From Burkholderiales bacterium (lineage in GTDB: Bacteria > Pseudomonadota > Gammaproteobacteria > Burkholderiales > SG8-39): a DNA stretch of 64,000 nt. The DNA lies in the NCBI GenBank assembly GCA_023383795.1, contig JAHDYJ010000004.1:22603-86602 (forward strand). Reading direction: 5' to 3'. A program made the position numbers and the translations under genes. The notes under the pieces were generated by a model, which made no database searches, was not told the origin of the DNA, and saw nothing but the letters and a program-made list of their open reading frames with translations. Each line of letters opens with the position of its first letter. Position 1 is the first letter of the stretch. This document shows, piece by piece, positions 293 through 30,874 of this stretch.

Positions 293-2521
293 ATGGCGGA
301 GATGAAGACCGCTGCCTACGTCTGCCAGGGGTGCGGGCTCGGCGAGCGTCTTGCGACGCAGCAGCTCGCGCAGGTGGCGCAGAAGGAGGGCAAGATGGCC
401 CTCGTGCGCGAGCACCCGTTCCTCTGCTCCGAGGCCGGCGTGCAGACGATCCGCGACGATATCGAGAAGGAGGGCGTCACGCACATCGCGATCGCGGCCT
501 GCTCGCGCCGCGCCAAGACCGAGGCGTTCCACTTCCCCGCCGTCGCCGTGTCGCGCGCGAACCTGCGCGAAGGCGTGATCTGGTCGCAGCCGGACACCGA
601 GGCGGCGCGCGAGACCACCCAGGAGATGGCCGACGACTACGTGCGCATGGCCTGCGCCGAGGTGAAGAGGATGAAGGCGCCCGCCGGCAACCCGGACGTG
701 GCGAGGAACACGCGGCTCCTGGTCGTGGGCGGCGGCATCTCGGGCATGACCGCCGCCCTCGAGGCGTCCAAGGCAGGCTACCCCGTGACGATCGTCGAGA
801 GGGCCGCCGCCCTCGGCGGGTGGGCGGCGAAGCTGTGGAAGCGCACCCCGGCGCACGAGCCGTTCCAGGCGCCCGCCGAGACCGGCGTCGCGGCCATGAT
901 CGAAGCGGTGCGCGCCGACCCGAACATCGAGGTGCGCCTCTCCTCGACGGTCGCGCGCACGAGCGGCGCGCCCGGCCGCTTCAGCGTCGAGATCGCCGCC
1001 GAATCCGGCGGCGCCGCGACCGAGGAGTTCGGCGCCATCGTGCAGGCCTCCGGGTTCTCGCTCTACGACGCGTCGAAGCTCCCCGAGCTCGGCTTCGGCA
1101 AGAGCCCGAACGTCGTCGACCAGGCCGGCCTGGAGCGGCTCGCGCGCGAGGCGGCGGCGGGCAACGCGCCGATCCGCCGCCCGTCCGACGGCGGCGAGGT
1201 GAAGACCGTCGTGTTCGTGCAGTGCGCCGGCCAGCGCGACGCGAGCGGCACGCACCTGCCCTACTGCTCCGGGCATTGCTGCGCCACCTCGATCAAGCAG
1301 GCGATGTACTTCAAGGACGCGAACCCCGCGGTCGACACGGCGGTGCTCTACACGGACCTGCGCGTGCCGGGGAACGGCGAGGACTTCTACCGCAGCGGCC
1401 AGTCGAAGGGCGTCGTCTTCACGAAGGGAAGCGTGCGCGCGGTCGAGCCCGCGGGCAACGCGTGCACGGTGCGCTTCCGCGACCTGATCCTCGACGAGGA
1501 CGCGGCGATCGAGAACGCCGATCTGGTCGTGCTCGCGACCGGCCAGGTGCCGAACTCGGGCGTCGACATCGAGAAAGTCGCCCAGAACGAGCCGGGGGAG
1601 TGGCAGTCGGACGCGAGCTCGGTGCTCAACCTCGCCTACCGCCAGGGCAAGGACCTGCCGCTCTTGCGGCACGGCTTCAGCGACTCGCACTTCATCTGCT
1701 TCCCGTACGAGACGCGCCGGACGGGGATCTATACCGCCGGCCCGGTGCGCCGGCCGATGGACATCGCGCAGGCGGTCGAGGACGCGACCGGCGCCGCGCT
1801 GAAGGCGATCCAGGCCGCCGAGAACGCCGCGCTCGGCCGCGCCGCGCACCCGCGCTCGGGCGACCTCTCCTTCCCGACGGTGCGCCTCGACGGCTGCACG
1901 CAGTGCAAGCGCTGCACGGTCGAGTGCCCGTTCGGCGCGATCGACGAGGACGAAAAGCGCTACCCGGTGTTCAACGAGAGCCGCTGCCGGCGCTGCGGCA
2001 CGTGCATGGGCGCCTGCCCGGTGCGGGTGATCTCGTTCGAGAACTACTCGGTCGACACCGTCGGCGCGCAGCTGAAGGCGGTGGACGTCCCGGACGAGTT
2101 CTCCGAGAAGCCGCGCATCCTGGTGCTCGCCTGCGAGAACGACGCCTACCCGGCGCTCGACATGGCCGGCATGGCGCGGCGCACCTACAGCGCCTTCGTG
2201 CGCATCATCCCGGTGCGCTGCCTCGGCTCGGTCAACACGATCTGGGTGTCGGACGCGCTGAACAGCGGCTACGACGGCGTGATGCTGATGGGCTGCAAGC
2301 ACGGCGACGACTACCAGTGCCACTTCGTCAAGGGCTCGGAGCTCGCCAACTACCGGATGAGCAAGATCGACGACACGCTGAAGCAGATGGCGCTCGAGAC
2401 CGAGCGCGTCGCGACCTACGAGGTCGCCATCACCGACATCGAGCGCGTGCCGCGGCTGATCGACGAGTACGCCGCGAAGATCGCCGAGATCGGGATGTCG
2501 CCGCTGAAGGGCTTCGCGTAA
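293..2521 (+). CDS. qmoB: QmoB (HdrA-like FAD/FeS protein with C-terminal MvhD-like domain)
   Basis: 742-aa ORF. Dinucleotide fold VVGGGISGMTAAL. 2x[4Fe-4S] ferredoxin motifs CTQCKRCTVECP and CRRCGTCMGACP. MvhD-like tail ILVLACENDAYPALD...GCKHGDDYQCHF. Confidence 0.9.
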   Translation: MAEMKTAAYVCQGCGLGERLATQQLAQVAQKEGKMALVREHPFLCSEAGVQTIRDDIEKEGVTHIAIAACSRRAKTEAFHFPAVAVSRANLREGVIWSQPDTEAARETTQEMADDYVRMACAEVKRMKAPAGNPDVARNTRLLVVGGGISGMTAALEASKAGYPVTIVERAAALGGWAAKLWKRTPAHEPFQAPAETGVAAMIEAVRADPNIEVRLSSTVARTSGAPGRFSVEIAAESGGAATEEFGAIVQASGFSLYDASKLPELGFGKSPNVVDQAGLERLAREAAAGNAPIRRPSDGGEVKTVVFVQCAGQRDASGTHLPYCSGHCCATSIKQAMYFKDANPAVDTAVLYTDLRVPGNGEDFYRSGQSKGVVFTKGSVRAVEPAGNACTVRFRDLILDEDAAIENADLVVLATGQVPNSGVDIEKVAQNEPGEWQSDASSVLNLAYRQGKDLPLLRHGFSDSHFICFPYETRRTGIYTAGPVRRPMDIAQAVEDATGAALKAIQAAENAALGRAAHPRSGDLSFPTVRLDGCTQCKRCTVECPFGAIDEDEKRYPVFNESRCRRCGTCMGACPVRVISFENYSVDTVGAQLKAVDVPDEFSEKPRILVLACENDAYPALDMAGMARRTYSAFVRIIPVRCLGSVNTIWVSDALNSGYDGVMLMGCKHGDDYQCHFVKGSELANYRMSKIDDTLKQMALETERVATYEVAITDIERVPRLIDEYAAKIAEIGMSPLKGFA

Positions 2522-2612
2522 CGGGTGACGGGTGATGGGTGATGGATGACCGACGACGGGAGTGACGGGCGCGCGACCGCGCGCCCGCCATCACCCTTCG
2601 CGCATCACCCGT
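2521..2612. repeat. Heptamer-repeat nested hairpin element (GGGTGAT class), copy A
   Basis: Left arm ACGGGTGACGGGTGATGGGTGATGG (2521-2545). Right arm CCATCACCCTTCGCGCATCACCCGT (2588-2612) is its imperfect reverse complement. An inner perfect 8-bp hairpin GGGCGCGC-gacc-GCGCGCCC lies at 2567-2586. Confidence 0.8.
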
Positions 2613-3272: not shown

Positions 3273-4184
3273 ATGGCGAAGAAGGAATACGCGTTCTACC
3301 CCGGCTGCACCTCGCACTACCGCGGCTCGGCGTCGAACTACCTGGTCTCGGTCGAGTCGATGTGCAAGACGCTCGACGTCAAGCTCACGCAGATCCCCGA
3401 CTGGAACTGCTGCGGCGCCTCGGTGAGCTACGCCGGCTCGGGCGAGCTCGCGCGCCACGTGATCAACGCGCGCAACTTCGCGCTCGCCGAGCAGAGCCTG
3501 CCCGGCCAGGACATAGTCGCCACCTGCGCCGCGTGCTGGCTGAACGCGCGCGAGAGCAAGGAGAAGCTCGACGCGAGCGCCGAGCTCCTCGCCGACACGA
3601 ACGAGGCGCTGAAGGAGGCGGGGCTGCGCTACCAGGGCGTGGCGAGCGTGCGCCACATGGTCGAGGTCCTGATCGAGGACCTCGGCTACGGGGAGATCGG
3701 CAGCCACGTCGTGAAACCGCTCGAGGGCGTGAGGTTCGCCGGCTACGTCGGCTGCCAGACCAACCGCCCGTTCGGCATCGCCGGCGAGTCGTTCGAGAAC
3801 CCCGTGTACCTCGACAAGCTCGTCGAGACGATGGGCGGCGAGGCGGTCACCGACTACGACCAGAAGGTGACCTGCTGCGGCGGCGCGCTCGCGGTCTCCG
3901 AGCCCGAGAAGAGCCAGGCGCAGATCAAGGACATCGTCGAGAGCGCCTACGATCACGGCGCCGACATGATCGTGACGCCCTGCCCGCTCTGCCAGGCGAA
4001 CGTCGAGATCTATCAGGCCGACGTCAACAAGCGCTACGGCACCAAGTTCAACATCCCGGTGACCTACTACAGCCAGCTGATGACCGTCGCCTACGGCGGC
4101 ACGGCCAAGGAGGCCGCGCTCGACGGCCAGATCATCCGCGCGACGAAGCTCGAAGAGATCGCCGCGAAGCCGGTGAAGAAGTAA
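3273..4184 (+). CDS. hdrB: HdrB-like subunit with two CCG (cysteine-rich) domains
   Basis: Internal ATG preceded by GGAGA. YAFYPGCTS...DWNCCGA and FAGYVGCQTNRP...KVTCCGGA...PCPLCQ are typical duplicated CCG domains. Confidence 0.85.
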   Translation: MAKKEYAFYPGCTSHYRGSASNYLVSVESMCKTLDVKLTQIPDWNCCGASVSYAGSGELARHVINARNFALAEQSLPGQDIVATCAACWLNARESKEKLDASAELLADTNEALKEAGLRYQGVASVRHMVEVLIEDLGYGEIGSHVVKPLEGVRFAGYVGCQTNRPFGIAGESFENPVYLDKLVETMGGEAVTDYDQKVTCCGGALAVSEPEKSQAQIKDIVESAYDHGADMIVTPCPLCQANVEIYQADVNKRYGTKFNIPVTYYSQLMTVAYGGTAKEAALDGQIIRATKLEEIAAKPVKK

Positions 4185-4795: not shown

Positions 4796-6004
4796 ATGAA
4801 ACCAGATGCACCGAACATCGATCTCCATCGCCGCTGGCTGCTCGCCGCAGGCGCGGGCGGCGCCGCCGCCGGCCTGAGCGGCTTCAGCCCGGCGAGCCTC
4901 GCGCAGCAGGCTGCCACGAAGCCGCTTCCGCCCGTCGCGTCGTTCAAGGACGCGGACCGCGTAATCGTGCACAGCGCGAGCGGCGTCGAGACGCAGCGCA
5001 GCGCGTTCGGCACGAGCGGAATCACGGACCTGGACATCCTCTTCCTGCGCAACAACCTCGGGGCCCCCAACGCCTCGATCGTGGCAAATCCCGACGCCTG
5101 GCAGGTGGACATCCAGGGGGTCACCAGCCCGCGCACGCTCAGCGTCGCCGAGCTCAAGCGCATGGGGCTCGCCAGCGTCGCGATGGTGCTGCAGTGCTCG
5201 GGCAACGGCCGCGCCTTCTTCGGCCACAAGGCGAGCGGCTCGCAATGGAAGGTGGGCGCCGCGGGCAACACGCTGTGGAGCGGCGTGCGGGTGAAGGACG
5301 TGGTCACCGCGCTCGGCGGCGTGCGCGAGGGGATGCGCTACATGACCAGCACCGGCGGCGAGACCATCCCGCCCGGCGTCGAGCCGAAGAAGGTGATGGT
5401 CGAGCGCTCGGTCCCCTGGACCGCGATGGAAGAGGCGATCCTCGCCTGGGAGCTGAACGGCCGACCGATCCCGCTCGCGCACGGCGGCCCGCTGCGGCTC
5501 GTCATCCCGGGGTTCTACGGCGTCAACAACATCAAGTACGTGAAGCGCGTCGCGTTCACGACCGAGGAGACCGACGCGAACATCCAGGCCTCGGGCTACC
5601 GCGTGCGGGCGGTCGGCATGAAGGGCGCGCCCACCCAGCCGTCGATGTGGGAGATGAACCTGAAGTCGTTCGTCACCGGGCCCGCGGGCGATGCGCCGGT
5701 GCGGGCCGGCGACGTACAGATCCACGGCGTCGCGTTCTCCGGCGGCAGTCCCGTCGCCGGCGTCGAGGTCTCCCTCGATGGCGGCCGGTCGTGGCAGCCC
5801 GCGCAGTTCTTCGGGCCGGACCAGGGGCGCTACGCCTGGCGCCAGTTCGTCCTGTCGGCGAAGCTGCCGCCCGGCTCCTACGTGATCACGAGCCGGGCGA
5901 TCGCCGCCGACGGCTCGGTGCAGCCCGAGCTGCGCGTCGAGAACGAGCGCGGCTACGCCCACAACGGCTGGCGGGACCACGCGGTCAAAGTGACGGTCTC
6001 GTGA
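4796..6004 (+). CDS. sorA: Molybdopterin sulfite dehydrogenase/oxidase family protein (SorA-like), Tat-exported
   Basis: ATG preceded by GAGGAG. Tat-type leader HRRWLLAAGAGGAAAGL. Sulfite-oxidase family blocks MVLQCSGNGRAFF, GGPLRLVIPGFYGVNNIKYVKRV, and a C-terminal Ig-like dimerisation region. Confidence 0.8.
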   Translation: MKPDAPNIDLHRRWLLAAGAGGAAAGLSGFSPASLAQQAATKPLPPVASFKDADRVIVHSASGVETQRSAFGTSGITDLDILFLRNNLGAPNASIVANPDAWQVDIQGVTSPRTLSVAELKRMGLASVAMVLQCSGNGRAFFGHKASGSQWKVGAAGNTLWSGVRVKDVVTALGGVREGMRYMTSTGGETIPPGVEPKKVMVERSVPWTAMEEAILAWELNGRPIPLAHGGPLRLVIPGFYGVNNIKYVKRVAFTTEETDANIQASGYRVRAVGMKGAPTQPSMWEMNLKSFVTGPAGDAPVRAGDVQIHGVAFSGGSPVAGVEVSLDGGRSWQPAQFFGPDQGRYAWRQFVLSAKLPPGSYVITSRAIAADGSVQPELRVENERGYAHNGWRDHAVKVTVS

Positions 6005-22670: not shown

Positions 22671-22676
22671 GACGAA

Positions 22677-22771
22677 GTGGACAGTGGACAGTGGACAGTT
22701 GGCAGTTGGCAGTTGGCGGTTCAACGAAGCCTAGGCACGCGCATCGCTCCGTCTGCTGCCCACTGCCCACT
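22677..22771. repeat. Heptamer-repeat inverted repeat (CAGTGGR class), copy D
   Basis: GTGGACA x3 followed by GTTGGCA x3 (22677-22719). The opposing arm is CTGCTGCCCACTGCCCACT (22753-22771). It fills the ykgJ-cbbQ spacer and ends 6 nt from the cbbQ ATG. Confidence 0.8.
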
Positions 22772-25289: not shown

Positions 25290-27206
25290 CTACTTGATCA
25301 GCTGGACGTACGGAACCTTCTTGATCTCCCACTGCTTGGTGTTGCGGTCGTAGCGGGAGTTGACGAAGCACTTCCAGTTCTCGTCGTCGATGTAGTTGTG
25401 GTCCATCCGGTAGTAGAAGCCCGGGTAACGGGTCTCCTCGCGGAACTGGATGTGCTTCATGTGCGCTTCGGCCGCGATGATGCGGTGGTAGTTCTCCCAC
25501 GCGCGCAGCAGCTCGTGCAGGTCCTTCGCACGCATCTTCAGCGAGTCTTCCTTCAGCATCTCGAGCTTCTTCTCGGCGACCTTGAGCATCGCGCCGTTGG
25601 TCCGGTAGTAGGTCGCCACGCCCGCCACGTACTCGTCCATGAGCTTCTGCAGCCGGAACTGCAGCATCTTGGGCGTGATGTAGTGCGGGTTGACGTCGAT
25701 CGCGGTGGTGTAGTCCTTGTGCTCGAGGAAGGTCTTGACCGGCCGGTAGATCTCCTCGACGAGCTCCGCGGTCGTGCGCGAGGACTCCGGCTTCCAGTCC
25801 TTGTTGTCGAGCGCGAAACGGACCATGGCCTTGGCCGCGATGCGCCCCTCGGTGAACGACCCCGACGAGAACTTGTGGCCCGAGGCGCCGACGCCGTCGC
25901 CGGCGGTGAACAGCCCCTTCACCGTGGTCATCGAGCGATAGCCCCAGCTCCACTCCTCCGGCACGCCCGGCAGGTCGGTCGGCCCGGACACCCAGATCCC
26001 GGCGCAGCCCGAGTGCGAGCCGAGCAGATACGGCTCGGTCGGCATGATTTCGGACGGAGTCTTCTCGGGCTCGATGTTCTCGCCGGCCCAGATGCCGCAC
26101 TGGCCGATCGTCATGTCGAGGAAGTCCTCCCACGCCTCGGCCTCGAGGTGCTTGACCTCCTTTGGCGTCATCTTCTCGGCGAGCTTCTGCATCGCGGTCG
26201 GCGTGTCCATGTAGATCGGACCGCGGCCGGCAAGCATCTCCTCGAGCATGATGTGGTTGCGCAGGCAGGTGCCCGGGACGCCGTGGCCGTACTTGCCGAA
26301 GCGCTTCTCGTCCTTGATGATGTCGGCGCGCAGGGTCGAGTAGTCCTCGCCGAAGCCGTTCATCACCTTCGCCTTGAAGAGCAGGAACCACGCCCCGACC
26401 GGCCCGTAGCCGTCCTTGAAGCGCGCCGGGACGAAGCGGTTCTCCATCATCGTCAGCTCGGCGCCGCACTCGGCCGCCATCGCGTAGGTCGAGCCTGCGT
26501 TCCACACCGGGTACCACGCGCGGCCGGTGCCTTCGCCGACCGAGCGCGGCCGGAACACGTTCACCGCGCCGCCCGCCACGAGCAGGCAGCACTTGAACTT
26601 GTAGATGTAGAGCTTGTGCTCGCGCACCGAGAAGCCGGCGGCGGCGGCGACCCGGCTCGGGTCGTTCTTGTCGGTGACCAGGCGCACGATGAACACGCGC
26701 TCCTGGATGTTCTCCATCCCGAGCGCCTTCTTCGCGGCCTCGGCGACGATCCACTTGTAGGACTCGCCGTTGATCATGATCTGCCACTTGCCCGAGCGCA
26801 CCGGCTTGCCGCCGGCGCGCAGCGACTTGTCCTCGTCGCCCGGCTGTTTCCAGATCGGCAGCCCCCAGTCCTCGAAGTTGTGGACCGAGTCGTCGACGTG
26901 GCGGCCGACGTCGTACACCAGGTCCTCGCGGATGATGCCCATGAGGTCGTTCCTCACGTAGCGCACGTAGTCCGATGGGTCGTTCTCGCCGCAGTAGGTG
27001 TTGATCGCCGACAGGCCCTGCGCGACCGCGCCCGAGCGCGACAGCGCCGCCTTGTCGACCAGCTTGATCTTCAGGTTCGCGCCGGCCGCCTTTGCCCACT
27101 GGCCGATCTCGAACGCCGCGCCGCAGGCGGCCATGCCGCCGCCGATGATCAGGACGTCGACCTCTTCCTCGACGATCTCGGGATTGCCGAATCCAAACTC
27201 TGCCAT
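25290..27206 (-). CDS. aprA: Adenylylsulfate (APS) reductase alpha subunit
   Basis: 638 aa. The N-terminus MAEFGFGNPEIVEEEVDVLIIGGGMAACGAAFE and the whole length are typical of AprA FAD subunits. Confidence 0.95.
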   Translation of the reverse strand: MAEFGFGNPEIVEEEVDVLIIGGGMAACGAAFEIGQWAKAAGANLKIKLVDKAALSRSGAVAQGLSAINTYCGENDPSDYVRYVRNDLMGIIREDLVYDVGRHVDDSVHNFEDWGLPIWKQPGDEDKSLRAGGKPVRSGKWQIMINGESYKWIVAEAAKKALGMENIQERVFIVRLVTDKNDPSRVAAAAGFSVREHKLYIYKFKCCLLVAGGAVNVFRPRSVGEGTGRAWYPVWNAGSTYAMAAECGAELTMMENRFVPARFKDGYGPVGAWFLLFKAKVMNGFGEDYSTLRADIIKDEKRFGKYGHGVPGTCLRNHIMLEEMLAGRGPIYMDTPTAMQKLAEKMTPKEVKHLEAEAWEDFLDMTIGQCGIWAGENIEPEKTPSEIMPTEPYLLGSHSGCAGIWVSGPTDLPGVPEEWSWGYRSMTTVKGLFTAGDGVGASGHKFSSGSFTEGRIAAKAMVRFALDNKDWKPESSRTTAELVEEIYRPVKTFLEHKDYTTAIDVNPHYITPKMLQFRLQKLMDEYVAGVATYYRTNGAMLKVAEKKLEMLKEDSLKMRAKDLHELLRAWENYHRIIAAEAHMKHIQFREETRYPGFYYRMDHNYIDDENWKCFVNSRYDRNTKQWEIKKVPYVQLIK

Positions 27207-27262
27207 GTTGCTTCCTTTCAGTCCGGCTGCGCCCGACTCCGGGGCGCCCTGCCGGGGAAACT

Positions 27263-27378
27263 GTGATGGGTGATGGGTAATGGGTGATGGGTGATGGAAA
27301 TCCGTCCTCTGCAGACCGGTCGGGGGTAATCAGGGTGGGGCGTCGCGCCCATCACCCGTCACCCTTCGCCCATCACCC
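27263..27378. repeat. Heptamer-repeat inverted repeat (GGGTGAT class), copy B
   Basis: Left arm of five heptamers GTGATGG GTGATGG GTAATGG GTGATGG GTGATGG (27263-27297). 50-nt spacer. Right arm CCCATCACCCGTCACCCTTCGCCCATCACCC (27348-27378) abuts and overlaps the aprB stop codon. Confidence 0.85.
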
Positions 27379-27837
27379 TTTGAGGAACTGGCTCATGTCG
27401 ACCTTGTGCGTCCCCTTCGTGAAGAGCACCTTGTCGTCGGTCGCGTCCTTCCAGTCCGCGGCGGGCTTGCCGCCGTACGGGTCCGCCGAGCCCTCCGGCG
27501 TCGTGCGGATCGGGAACTTGAAGCGCTTCACGGTGCCGTTCCGGAACTTGATGGTCCACAGGATCGAGTCCGAGCCGCGCAGCGGCTGGACCGATGCGCC
27601 GAGCGGCACGATGTCGGCGTAGTGGCGCACCTCGATCGCGTTCTGCGGGCAGATCTTCACGCAGGAGTAGCACTCCCAGCACTGCTCGGGCTCCTGGTTG
27701 TAGGCCTTCATCGCATGGCCGGTCTGCGAGCCGTCCTTGTCGAGCATCATCAGGTCGTGCGGGCAGATGTACATGCAGGCGGTCTTGTCCTGGCCCTTGC
27801 AGCCGTCGCACTTGTCGGTACGGACGAAAGTCGGCAT
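27373..27837 (-). CDS. aprB: Adenylylsulfate (APS) reductase beta subunit
   Basis: MPTFVRTDKCDGCKG...ACMYICPHDLM...CWECYSCVKICPQ: two [4Fe-4S] motifs and the typical AprB tail. GGAG precedes the ATG at 27837. The track ORF start at 27897 lies in repeat array C. Confidence 0.9.
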   Translation of the reverse strand: MPTFVRTDKCDGCKGQDKTACMYICPHDLMMLDKDGSQTGHAMKAYNQEPEQCWECYSCVKICPQNAIEVRHYADIVPLGASVQPLRGSDSILWTIKFRNGTVKRFKFPIRTTPEGSADPYGGKPAADWKDATDDKVLFTKGTHKVDMSQFLKG

Positions 27838-27857
27838 TGCCTTCTCCTCGTAAAACC

Positions 27858-27906
27858 CGTGAATCGTGAATCGTAGCTCGTGAACCGCGGATCGCAAGTC
27901 GTCGAA
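27858..27906. repeat. Degenerate period-7 array (CGTGAAT class), copy C
   Basis: CGTGAAT CGTGAAT CGTAGCT CGTGAAC CGCGGAT CGCAAGT CGTCGAA: seven consecutive heptamers each starting CG(T/C), located in the sat-aprB spacer. Confidence 0.6.
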
Positions 27907-27912
27907 AACCGG

Positions 27913-29130
27913 TCAGCGCGCCGAGTGTCCGGCGAGCTTCACCTCCACCTTCTCGTGCGCCGCCAGCCCGGCGTAGTACTCGCGCAGGATCTCCAGCACC
28001 TCGGGCCGGCTGAACTCGGCCGGCACCGGCGAGCCCTCGGACAGCCACTTGCGCAGCTTCGTGCCCGACACGAGCAGGCGGTCCTCGTCGGCGTGCGGGC
28101 AGGTGCGCGCCGAGGCCATGCCGCCGCAGCGGTAGCACCAGAACGTCCAGTCGATCTTGAGCGGGCGCGTCTCGAGCGATCCGGCCGGGATCTCGTCGAA
28201 GATGCGGTGCGCGTCGAACGGCCCGTAGTAGCTGCCGACGCCGGCGTGGTCGCGCCCGACGATCAGGTGCGAGCAGCCGTAGTTCTGGCGGAAGAGCGCG
28301 TGCAGCAGCGCCTCGCGCGGTCCGGCGTAGCGCATGTCGAGCGGATAGCCCGCCTGCACCACCGTGTTCCTCACGAAATAGCGCTCGATCAGCGCGGCGA
28401 TCGCGCGAGTGCGCACCTCGGCCGGGATGTCGCCGGGCTTCAGCGCGCCGAGCAGCGAATGCACCAGCACGCCGTCGCAGGTCTCGATGGCGACCTTGGC
28501 GAGATATTCGTGCGAACGGTGCATCGGGTTGCGCGTCTGGAAGGCGGCCACCCGCGACCAGCCGAGCGACTCGAACAGCGCGCGCGTCTCGCGCGGCGTC
28601 AAGAACAGCGCGCCGTAGCGCTCCGGGAAGCCGCCGGTCGAGAGCACCTTGACCGGCCCCGCCAGGTTCACCTCGCCCTGCTCCATCACCATCTTGACGC
28701 CGGGGTGCTCGAGGTCCGCCGTCCTGAACACCATCATGCACTCGTGCGCCTTGTCGATGGCGTACTTCTCGGTGACCTGCATGACCGCGAGGATTTCGCC
28801 GTCCCCGCCGTCGGCGAGCGCGATCTCGGCGCCGGTCCGGATCGAGTCCGCCGTGGCGCGGTCGGTGGAGAGCGTGATCGGGATCGGCCAGAAGAGGTCG
28901 CTCGCGAGCTTCATGCCGTCGCACACGCGCTCCCAGTCGCCGTGCGTCATGAATCCGTCGAGCGGCGTGAACCCGCCGATGCCGAGCATGATGAGGTCGC
29001 CCTTCTCGCGCGAGCTGACCGCAATGCGCGGCAGCGTGCGCGCGCGGGCGAGCGCATCGGCGCGCTCGGCGCCCTCGAGCAACAGCGGCTTGAGTGGTCC
29101 CCCACCGTGGGGGTTGACAAGACCTGGCAC
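27913..29130 (-). CDS. sat: Sulfate adenylyltransferase (ATP sulfurylase), dissimilatory type
   Basis: [16 protein letters not shown] and GRDHAGVG motifs. I prefer the GTG at 29130 (AGGAGA 5 nt upstream) over the track start at 29148. Confidence 0.9.
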
Positions 29131-29445
29131 GCTTTCTCCTGACGGCACGAGCCGCGCGGCGGCTTCGCCGCGCCGGTCTGCCTGGCGGCGCGCCGATCTC
29201 TTTCCGGGTCTTCTTGGACGTCGCGCGCCGCCGGAGCACCGGCGGACAATGCCTCGTTCGCGCGCGCGGGATCAGCGAGCACCGTATTCTGACGGGGTCG
29301 GCCCGCGGGCAGAAAGTGGTTATTTTGATCCGCTGATAAACCTCCCTGTTTGGGGCCGCGGCGGACGTGCGCGGGCCGCATTTCCGGTCGCGGGACGGCC
29401 GCCTTGGTAGACTTGCGGCATCGGACGGGAATTCTGGGGGCGGCG

Positions 29446-29806: not shown

Positions 29807-30805
29807 GTGGGCGAGCAGAGCCCGCCCGCAGCGGACGCGCCCACGCGCTGGCTGGCGCTGGTTGCGGCGCTGCCGCGCGACGACGCGGCCGGGCGCATGC
29901 ACGCCCTGCGCACGCTCGAAGGCCTCGGGTGCGCGGTGATGCGCGAGGGCGTCTACCTGCTGCCCGACACGCCCGGCAACCGCGCGAGCTTCCAGCGGCT
30001 CGTCGACCACATCGCGCGGATCAAGGGCGACGCCTGGCTGCTGCCGGTGCAGACGGAGAGCGCCGCGGAGGCGAAGCGCCTGCGCACGATGTTCGATCGC
30101 AGCGGCCGCTACAGCGAGCTCATCAAGACGGTCGAGGGCCTGAAGGCGGGCTTCGGCATCTCCGATCCGACCGCGATCGGGCAGGTCCTCGCCAAGCAGC
30201 GGCGCGAGCTCGAGGCGATCACCTCGCTCGACTTCTTCGTGTCGCCGCTGAAGGAGCGCGCCGAGCGCTTGCTCGCCGAGATGGAGGCGCGCGTCCGCGA
30301 GATGATGTTTCCCGACGACGCCGCGCCGCCCGGCGCGCTGCCGGCGGCGCGCTCGAAGCGGCAGTACTTCCGGCGGGCCTGGGCCACGCGCAAGCCGCTG
30401 TTCGCCGACCGGCTGGCGAGCGCGTGGCTGATCCGGCGCTTCATCGACCCGGAGGCGAGGATGCTGTGGCTGGACAAGCGCGAGCCCTGTCCGGCGACCG
30501 CGGTCGGGTTCGCCTTCGACGGCGCCGAGTTCCGCAACTCGAAGACGCGCGTGACCTACGAGGAGCTTCTCGCGAGCTTCAGGCTCGACCGGCAGGCCAG
30601 CCTCGTCAAGATCGGCCGGCTCGTGCACGCGCTCGACGCCGGCAACAAGCGCATGCCCGAGGCGGCCGGCGTCGAGACGCTGCTCGCCGGTGCGCGCCAC
30701 CGCGCCTCGAACGAGGACGAGCTCCTGCGCGAGAGCGAGCGGACCTTCGACCTGCTCTACGAGGCGTACTACGAAATGCCGAAGAAGGAGGACAGCGGAC
30801 AGTAG
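29807..30805 (+). CDS. ChrB-family (chromate resistance-associated) protein
   Basis: The C-terminal block RAWATRKPLFADRLASAWLIRRFIDPEARMLW matches the conserved ChrB C-domain signature. N-terminal ChrB-N-like region. No chrA transporter gene is in the window. Confidence 0.7.
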   Translation: MGEQSPPAADAPTRWLALVAALPRDDAAGRMHALRTLEGLGCAVMREGVYLLPDTPGNRASFQRLVDHIARIKGDAWLLPVQTESAAEAKRLRTMFDRSGRYSELIKTVEGLKAGFGISDPTAIGQVLAKQRRELEAITSLDFFVSPLKERAERLLAEMEARVREMMFPDDAAPPGALPAARSKRQYFRRAWATRKPLFADRLASAWLIRRFIDPEARMLWLDKREPCPATAVGFAFDGAEFRNSKTRVTYEELLASFRLDRQASLVKIGRLVHALDAGNKRMPEAAGVETLLAGARHRASNEDELLRESERTFDLLYEAYYEMPKKEDSGQ

Positions 30806-30874
30806 TCAGTGGGCAGTAGCCTGCAGTTCACTGTCCACTGCTCCCTGCTCCCTACCCACTGCCCACTGTCCACT
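30806..30874. repeat. Heptamer-repeat element (CAGTGGG/CACTGYC class), copy E
   Basis: CAGTGGGCAGT (30807-30817) pairs perfectly with ACTGCCCACTG (30858-30868). 30829-30874 is a run of 6.5 heptamers: CACTGTC CACTGCT CCCTGCT CCCTACC CACTGCC CACTGTC CACT. It fills the whole convergent spacer. Confidence 0.8.

Follow-up and report, generated by a model that had tools for sequence, protein, structure and literature searches.

The heptameric STRR sequences of cyanobacteria are intergenic tandem repeats with a sporadic distribution, and REP/BIME elements occupy co-directional or convergent spacers, often near stop codons, where they are transcribed and stabilise upstream mRNA segments. In Xanthomonas and Nostoc, Rehm et al. 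(2015, PLoS One, PMC4692102) described tandem arrays of GGGAATC and GGGGA(C/T)T heptamers, respectively, at approximately 185 loci with a preference for four units, and counted 70-75 convergent inverted pairs. These repeats are under-represented between divergent ORFs and lie within 50 bp of a translation stop, on the coding strand; most of them are transcribed, they are unlinked to mobile elements, and no function was found for them (PMC4692102). In marine Beggiatoaceae, TAACTGA heptamers abut start codons instead of ribosome-binding sites (MacGregor 2015, PMC4679880). As Mrazek et al. (2007) are summarised in the same paper (PMC4679880), many genomes have heptanucleotides as their commonest class of long simple sequence repeat (LSSR), those of high-GC Burkholderia and Xanthomonas in particular, and polymerase slippage was proposed for this heptamer excess. 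REPs, for their part, are units of 30-40 nt that form imperfect palindromes, carry GTAG 5' of the foot and have a cognate Y1 transposase, RAYT (Ton-Hoang et al. 2012, PMC3333891).

The element analyzed here separates aprB from aprA in a 64,000-nt stretch of DNA (the window, i.e., the whole stretch that was analyzed), which belongs to a draft genome of 4.93 Mb in 234 contigs with 71.5% G+C. The genes sat, aprB and aprA follow one another in this order on the minus strand, all three of them Pfam-confirmed, and the features of the locus are as follows.

25290..27206, minus strand, CDS of aprA, APS reductase alpha subunit (Pfam)
27207..27262, minus strand, native aprA leader, not part of the insert, folding at -27.6 kcal/mol
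27263..27297, minus strand, aprA-proximal arm, GTGATGG GTGATGG GTAATGG GTGATGG GTGATGG on the plus strand and five (CCAUCAC)-type units in the mRNA
27298..27347, minus strand, loop of 50 nt, in which, according to the fold, a short GC stem (GGGCG/CGCCC) lengthens the hairpin on the stop-proximal side
27348..27378, minus strand, stop-proximal arm of 31 nt, CCCATCACCCGTCACCCTTCGCCCATCACCC, which pairs with 27263-27297
27373..27837, minus strand, CDS of aprB, APS reductase beta subunit (PF12139, 3e-29)
27913..29148, minus strand, sat, ATP sulfurylase (PF01747, 4.5e-88), upstream of aprB and in the same direction

The nearest AprA sequences, from Burkholderiales and Gammaproteobacteria metagenome-assembled genomes, are 71-89% identical to the protein encoded here. 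We localized the aprB start at the ATG at 27837, with GAGGAG upstream, and not at the TTG at 27897 of the longest ORF. In the sat-aprB spacer (27838-27912) there is a degenerate CGTGAAT/ATTCACG array of 2.4 units (27858-27874) with no clear partner arm, which resembles the C-rich arm of the GTGAACG family described below.

An earlier, sequence-only reading of this DNA had described five GTGATGG/GTAATGG heptamers, a 50-nt gap and an opposed arm within a 166-nt aprB-aprA spacer, and both the sequence and the spacer coordinates (27207-27372) agree with it. The same reading had the G-rich arm begin at the aprB stop codon; the stop indeed lies within the arm, but the last aprB codon, GGG, precedes it there, and the TGA (27373-27375) occupies bases 4-6, which is a minor correction. 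In the mRNA sense, this stop-proximal arm reads GGGTGAT GGGCGAA GGGTGAC GGGTGAT GGG, approximately 4.4 heptamers, and 56 nt separate the end of the C-rich arm from the aprA ATG, where about 55 nt had been estimated. Tandem Repeats Finder scored the two arms 63 (27263-27297; 5.0 units, 92% matches) and 41 (4.4 units), and the 14-mer GTGATGGGTGATGG, allowing up to two mismatches, occurs nine times in the window against 0.23 expected. The RNA structure prediction that had been suggested gave -60.2 kcal/mol for the 116-nt element, compared with -38.9 +/- 3.9 kcal/mol for shuffled sequences (z -5.45; 0 of 200 shuffles as good); the predicted fold is an interrupted hairpin of about 40 bp with the aprB stop in its foot, and the spacer region as a whole folds significantly on both strands. 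The loop has no match among the other loops of the family or elsewhere in the genome. Taken together, the element is well supported as a heptameric simple-sequence-repeat inverted pair of the GGGTGAT type, formed by two opposed tandem arrays around a unique loop.

Across a set of 78 related aprBA loci of public genomes, about half of them with approximate aprA starts, aprB-aprA spacer lengths have a median of 49 nt and range from 9 to 184 nt; this bears out the statement in the sequence-only reading that the two genes are usually closely spaced. Only one of the 78 spacers exceeds 166 nt, and the other 77 are shorter. Comparable structured spacers are not the norm in related loci either, since 0 of 64 fold below -60 kcal/mol, against -75.6 kcal/mol for the spacer in the window. 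The position of so large a structured insert had been called unexpected, and relatives with a close homologue of this apr operon concur: the element is absent from the spacers of the same-genus genomes G002 (approximately 48 nt; AprB 94% identical) and G003 (61 nt; AprB 95% identical) and of the same-family genome G007 (9 nt). In G003, aprB ends on the same codon position and with the same TGA as in the window, and 12 nt later comes CGGCAGGGCGCTCCAGGGTCGAGCGCAGCCGGCACTGAAAGGAAGCGAC-ATG, a stretch homologous to window positions 27207-27262. These positions are homologous to the whole distal spacer of G003 and of a further related locus, L001. They hold a small hairpin, CCGGCAGGGCGC...GCGCAGCCGG, in which 5 of 10 pairs show compensatory changes among six sequences (the window, G003, L001, L003, L004 and L009), together with a Shine-Dalgarno region, GAAAGGAAG, located 5 nt before the ATG. 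Judging from these alignments, the small hairpin may be a native aprA 5' leader element. Since the relatives lack the heptamer element and the native stop and leader are conserved, the element is a recent, lineage-specific insertion; its approximately 110 nt lie exactly between the native aprB stop and the native aprA leader, leaving both intact. The last aprB codon is GGG both here and in L001 (GGG-TAA), so that a GGGTRA string pre-existed at the junction. We also considered the loop as a remnant of the ancestral spacer, which is unsupported for this copy because the loop has no homology to the native spacer of G003 or L001. A metagenome scan with a conserved 21-mer of the aprB 3' end, aimed at spacer variants, yielded 14 loci, all of which were chance matches in other genes.

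Using Tandem Repeats Finder on the whole genome, we obtained 754 period-7 arrays, of which 190 belong to a few A/T-containing unit families and cluster into at least 138 loci; array number and length are underestimated, because long arrays break the assembly. Ten arrays of up to 14 perfect units are located at contig ends (C49:1-55, C108, C150, C160, C164, C196, C82 and others). The four unit families are GTGATGG/GTGACGG (approximately 60 arrays), CAGTGGG/CAGTGGA/CAGTTGG (approximately 80), GTGAACG (approximately 30) and GAGYGAG (approximately 15); array length has a median of 4-5 units. The G-rich arm precedes the C-rich arm (5' to 3') in all 77 cases, namely in every one of the 42 two-arm loci and in all 35 single arrays for which a partner could be detected, a polarity that reads the same on either strand. 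Besides the aprB-aprA copy, the window contains the following members.

2521..2601, no strand assigned, copy A, of the same unit family as the aprB-aprA copy, with the G-rich arm right after a TAA stop and a GC palindrome as the loop
22676..22771, no strand assigned, CAGTGGA/CAGTTGG copy that fills a co-directional spacer and has a 35-nt core common to approximately 7 loci
30800..30874, no strand assigned, CAGTGGG copy that fills a convergent spacer

Genes were called with a crude, self-trained program (4510 genes, 89.6% coding, start positions approximate), which places 93 loci in co-directional spacers, 26 in convergent ones and 2 in divergent ones, the last figure comparing with 34.9 expected from intergenic length (p = 2e-15). 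The median distance between a stop-adjacent arm and its stop codon is 1 nt, with overlap in 38 of 96 cases, and start-adjacent arms end a median of 8 nt before the start codon. One operon-internal copy separates the gene of a periplasmic binding protein from that of an ABC ATPase. The mreB-mreC junction, outside the window (contig C49:13391-13475), is filled by an 85-nt GGGTGAT/CCATCAC hairpin, 4 nt behind the mreB stop and 5 nt ahead of the mreC ATG, where no Shine-Dalgarno sequence is present; stop and start thus stand at the two feet of the stem. At 41 junctions, the downstream gene starts within 12 nt of the C-rich arm, with ATG in 36 of them; a Shine-Dalgarno core is present in 2 of these 41 genes, compared with 41% of genes genome-wide.

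Every architectural feature of the Rehm et al. repeats (PMC4692102) is reproduced in this genome: G-rich 7-nt units in tandem, spread over far more than 100 loci and with about four units as the mode, convergent inverted pairs able to form stem-loops with the G-rich arm first, array lengths that vary among close relatives, no linkage to insertion sequences or transposable elements, and few copies in divergent spacers with many near stop codons, one of which, that of aprB, is overlapped by the aprB-aprA copy. The sequence family differs, the unit here being GGGTGAT and not the Xanthomonas consensus GGGNATC; moreover, at least four unrelated unit families coexist here, two of them without G3 tracts, and the burst is found in one species of its genus, whereas the Xanthomonas genomes Xcc and Xac share most loci (PMC4692102). 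Like the TAACTGA repeats of Beggiatoaceae (PMC4679880), the arrays are intergenic tandem heptamers of sporadic phylogeny which, at the level of the family, replace Shine-Dalgarno sequences (the 41 genes above). In contrast to the TAACTGA repeats, almost all of which are direct (one inverted set in 170; PMC4679880), the arrays here form inverted pairs as a rule, and at the aprB-aprA copy the Shine-Dalgarno of aprA is not replaced. The LSSR concept of Mrazek et al., as it is rendered in PMC4679880, covers neither the inverted pairing nor the strict polarity nor the placement at gene ends.

The scarcity of divergent copies, together with the co-directional and convergent placement, is terminator-like, and the CAGTGGG family has A-rich/T-rich flanks such as those of bidirectional terminators. 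Both observations would suit an attenuator or terminator at which RNA polymerase stops or pauses between aprB and aprA, aprA then needing read-through or a downstream promoter. However, the mRNA-sense stem of the aprB-aprA copy is followed by CAGUUUCCCC, and that of the other strand by CCCUUUGAGG; neither is a U-tract, the whole GTGATGG family has none, and a terminator scan gave no match at this site, for which reasons an intrinsic (Rho-independent) terminator was rejected as the main function. Furthermore, the 56-nt aprA leader holds no promoter-like site, and members sit in obligate operon junctions, e.g., mreB-mreC, with no room for a promoter. We therefore regard an attenuator or terminator as quite unlikely. 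A search of Rfam 15 gave no match at the gathering score; the best matches were eukaryotic and viral miRNA hairpin models with at most 28 bits against thresholds of 83-97, i.e., chance hairpins, and a known structured RNA family was likewise rejected.

The two arms of the aprB-aprA copy match the canonical G3N4 quadruplex motif, on opposite strands (regular-expression search). DNA-level action has been proposed for the Xanthomonas repeats, and the analogous GGGAATC repeats form G-quadruplexes (G4) in vitro (PMC4692102), so that a quadruplex or cruciform acting here on replication, recombination or nucleoid proteins deserves consideration, and the lack of strand bias reported below would fit it. 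Against this proposal, a canonical G4 motif is present in only 23 of the 138 loci, and the complementary arm competes with G4 by forming the hairpin. The GTGAACG and CAGTTGG families, for which no three-tetrad G4 is possible, show the same architecture, copy number (median 4-5) and placement. Since two of the unit families have no G3 tracts, G4 capacity is not the common denominator of these repeats, and a DNA-level function of this type seems rather improbable.

As dispersed extragenic palindromes with REP-like placement, the elements resemble the REP/BIME of enterobacteria and pseudomonads (PMC3333891), and a non-autonomous mobile element (MITE or REP/BIME-like) could have transposed into the aprB-aprA spacer. 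In further support, about seven copies of the CAGTKGR subfamily have a common 35-nt core. Nevertheless, the loops of the aprB-aprA copy and of most copies are unique, and the arms consist of tandem heptamers in varying number instead of fixed terminal repeats. There is also no GTAG foot, and PF01797 (Y1 transposase, RAYT) has no match in the 234-contig draft, although it is found in 8 of 21 related genomes and in 6 control genomes. On these grounds we rejected both a REP/BIME with RAYT and, for the aprB-aprA copy, a MITE or common master copy, the core being confined to the approximately seven copies of another unit family; we hold transposition into this spacer to be very unlikely.

The approximately seven CAGTKGR copies have near-identical loop cores of 30-35 nt (TCAACGAAGTCTAGACGCTCGCATCGCTCCGTC), whereas the other loops are unique. 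They are located at window positions 22676-22771 and at C167:13658-13815, C223:6839-6964, C87:15780-15904, C150:1-66, C37:34516-34582 and C228:11335-11431. From its shared core, this subfamily looks like a small mobile unit, unlike the other loci.

To compare the two strands, both were folded for the 33 two-arm elements located between co-directional genes. The mRNA-sense strand was the more stable one in 18 elements and the antisense strand in 15, and G:U pairs numbered 143 and 142, respectively, with no sense-strand bias (Wilcoxon p = 0.77). An RNA structure optimised on the sense strand is thus unsupported, the strands folding equally well in the 33 elements. By a hand count from the table of arrays, single-arm detections divide 30:30 between stop-proximal and start-proximal positions. 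An origin seeded at the stop codon, for which a longer stop-proximal arm is expected, is unsupported by this split; the start-proximal arm is as long and clean as the stop-proximal one, which does not fit a simple form of that origin. Because there is no bias between sense and antisense and the single arms split evenly, the element behaves as a strand-symmetric DNA palindrome, whose placement is constrained and whose fine structure is not.

The sequence-only reading had tied the element to the stoichiometry of AprB and AprA, and an apr-specific control would mean that the hairpin was selected to uncouple or tune AprB (or Sat-AprB) relative to AprA, by way of segmental mRNA stability, of processing by RNase III or RNase E, or of a pause of the ribosome at the aprB stop. 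Such a role would agree with a hairpin that is highly stable, begins within the stop codon, has no counterpart in any other apr locus examined and spares the aprA leader. On the other hand, the same architecture is found at the at least 138 unrelated junctions of the genome, at the 3' ends of all kinds of genes, and same-genus relatives with the same operon lack the element. The loop is unique, the conserved aprA leader and its Shine-Dalgarno are untouched, and the aprB-aprA copy pairs better in antisense (-71.4 kcal/mol) than in sense (-60.2 kcal/mol), within a family devoid of sense-strand G:U bias. In addition, AprA and AprB are obligate partners in a 1:1 heterodimer, so that expressing them unequally brings no obvious benefit. 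The stoichiometry role is unsupported as it was stated, the aprB-aprA element is not a dedicated regulator of AprB/AprA stoichiometry, and we consider apr-specific adaptive control unlikely.

The phylogenetic distribution was analyzed with the repeat units themselves. Patterns of (GTGATGG)x3 and (GTGAACG)x3 are absent from 40 relatives, including six same-genus genomes, and for the CAGTKGR pattern the counts are 154 in this genome, 26 in G002 and one in each of two other relatives. The array density is 43.7 per Mb in this genome, compared with 0-5 per Mb in three same-genus genomes (0.2-0.4 Mb sampled). Across 400 genomes of the class, (GTGATGG)x3 is sporadic, occurring in five of them, in some cases as single arrays after a stop codon and in others as inverted pairs with the G-rich arm first. 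The genomes G158 and G335, which belong to one distant genus of another family in the same class (loci L162 and L163), have approximately 43 (GTGATGG)x3 matches each, including one array of more than 25 units; this is an independent or transferred burst of the GTGATGG unit. A soil metagenome contig recovered through a chance 21-mer match (Ga0070741_10031858, locus L112) holds two heptamer inverted pairs within 7.3 kb, at 3684-3757 and 5208-5374, with units of the AGTGATG/CATCACT and TCAGCTA/AGCTGAC types; one pair lies between a stop codon and an ATG preceded by a Shine-Dalgarno sequence. The sporadic matches elsewhere, combined with the near-absence from same-genus relatives, indicate that heptamer inverted pairs are a widespread but patchy kind of element, with a recent burst in the source species.

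The reading that we favour, with a confidence slightly above even, combines these observations: the element would be a passenger that was generated by slippage and is tolerated, and its side effects on the sat-aprBA mRNA would resemble those of REP elements. The GGG-TGA already present at the end of aprB could have served as the seed from which a 7-nt unit expanded by strand slippage, and the complementarity of the partner arm would be maintained through intra-hairpin templated repair. Copies would survive only in promoter-free spacers beside the 3' ends of genes, where hairpins of this type are presumably tolerated. At the apr locus, the element would be co-transcribed within the sat-aprB-aprA mRNA and fold there into the interrupted hairpin of about 40 bp whose foot holds the aprB stop, with a G-quadruplex in the G-rich arm as a possible alternative fold. 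Because it has no U-tract, it would not terminate transcription, and aprA would be initiated independently, 56 nt downstream, from an intact conserved leader and Shine-Dalgarno of its own. With the G-rich arm transcribed first, the C-rich arm would pair at the moment of its synthesis; in the reverse order, the C-rich arm would offer Rho an exposed loading site, which is a plausible reason for the G-first rule.

In E. coli, REP sequences near stop codons are a precedent both for a 3'-to-5' exonuclease barrier and for hindrance of termination. By analogy, the apr hairpin is likely to act as such a barrier, stabilising the upstream sat-aprB segment, and is likely to hinder termination mildly at the aprB stop. 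Ribosome pausing and protection of the sat-aprB segment, which the sequence-only reading had listed among possible roles, are thus plausible as side effects.

Pure neutrality does not explain the exclusion from divergent spacers, the strict polarity or the tight abutment to stop and start codons. The strict 77/77 polarity, the several unrelated units bursting in one species and the 41 junctions, mreB-mreC among them, at which a stop codon and the next start occupy opposite feet of the stem without a Shine-Dalgarno sequence are the reasons to propose that the heptamer hairpins go beyond slippage debris and form a lineage-specific system that either has a function or is produced by a dedicated mechanism, a proposal that we judge improbable. 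Two variants of it would fit: stop-to-start bridging, i.e., termination-reinitiation across the foot of the stem, similar to ribosome shunting, and templated 3'-end addition of repeats at breaks. Under bridging, the aprB-aprA copy would be a member in which it is unused, since aprA keeps its own leader.

For sulfur metabolism, the finding means little: the aprBA operon bears a passenger hairpin that is absent from relatives and should not be annotated as a conserved apr regulatory element. The aprB-aprA hairpin is of the kind already described in Xanthomonas and is not a device specific to sulfur metabolism. For genome biology it is moderately useful, as a natural case, and a clean one, of heptameric inverted pairs that have undergone a recent burst (approximately 44 arrays per Mb versus 0-5 in same-genus genomes). 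We argue from it that G4 capacity does not define or place repeats of this type, because the G4-incapable unit families behave identically. Any model of these elements must explain why the G-rich arm comes first, why the arms abut stop and start codons and why divergent spacers are excluded.
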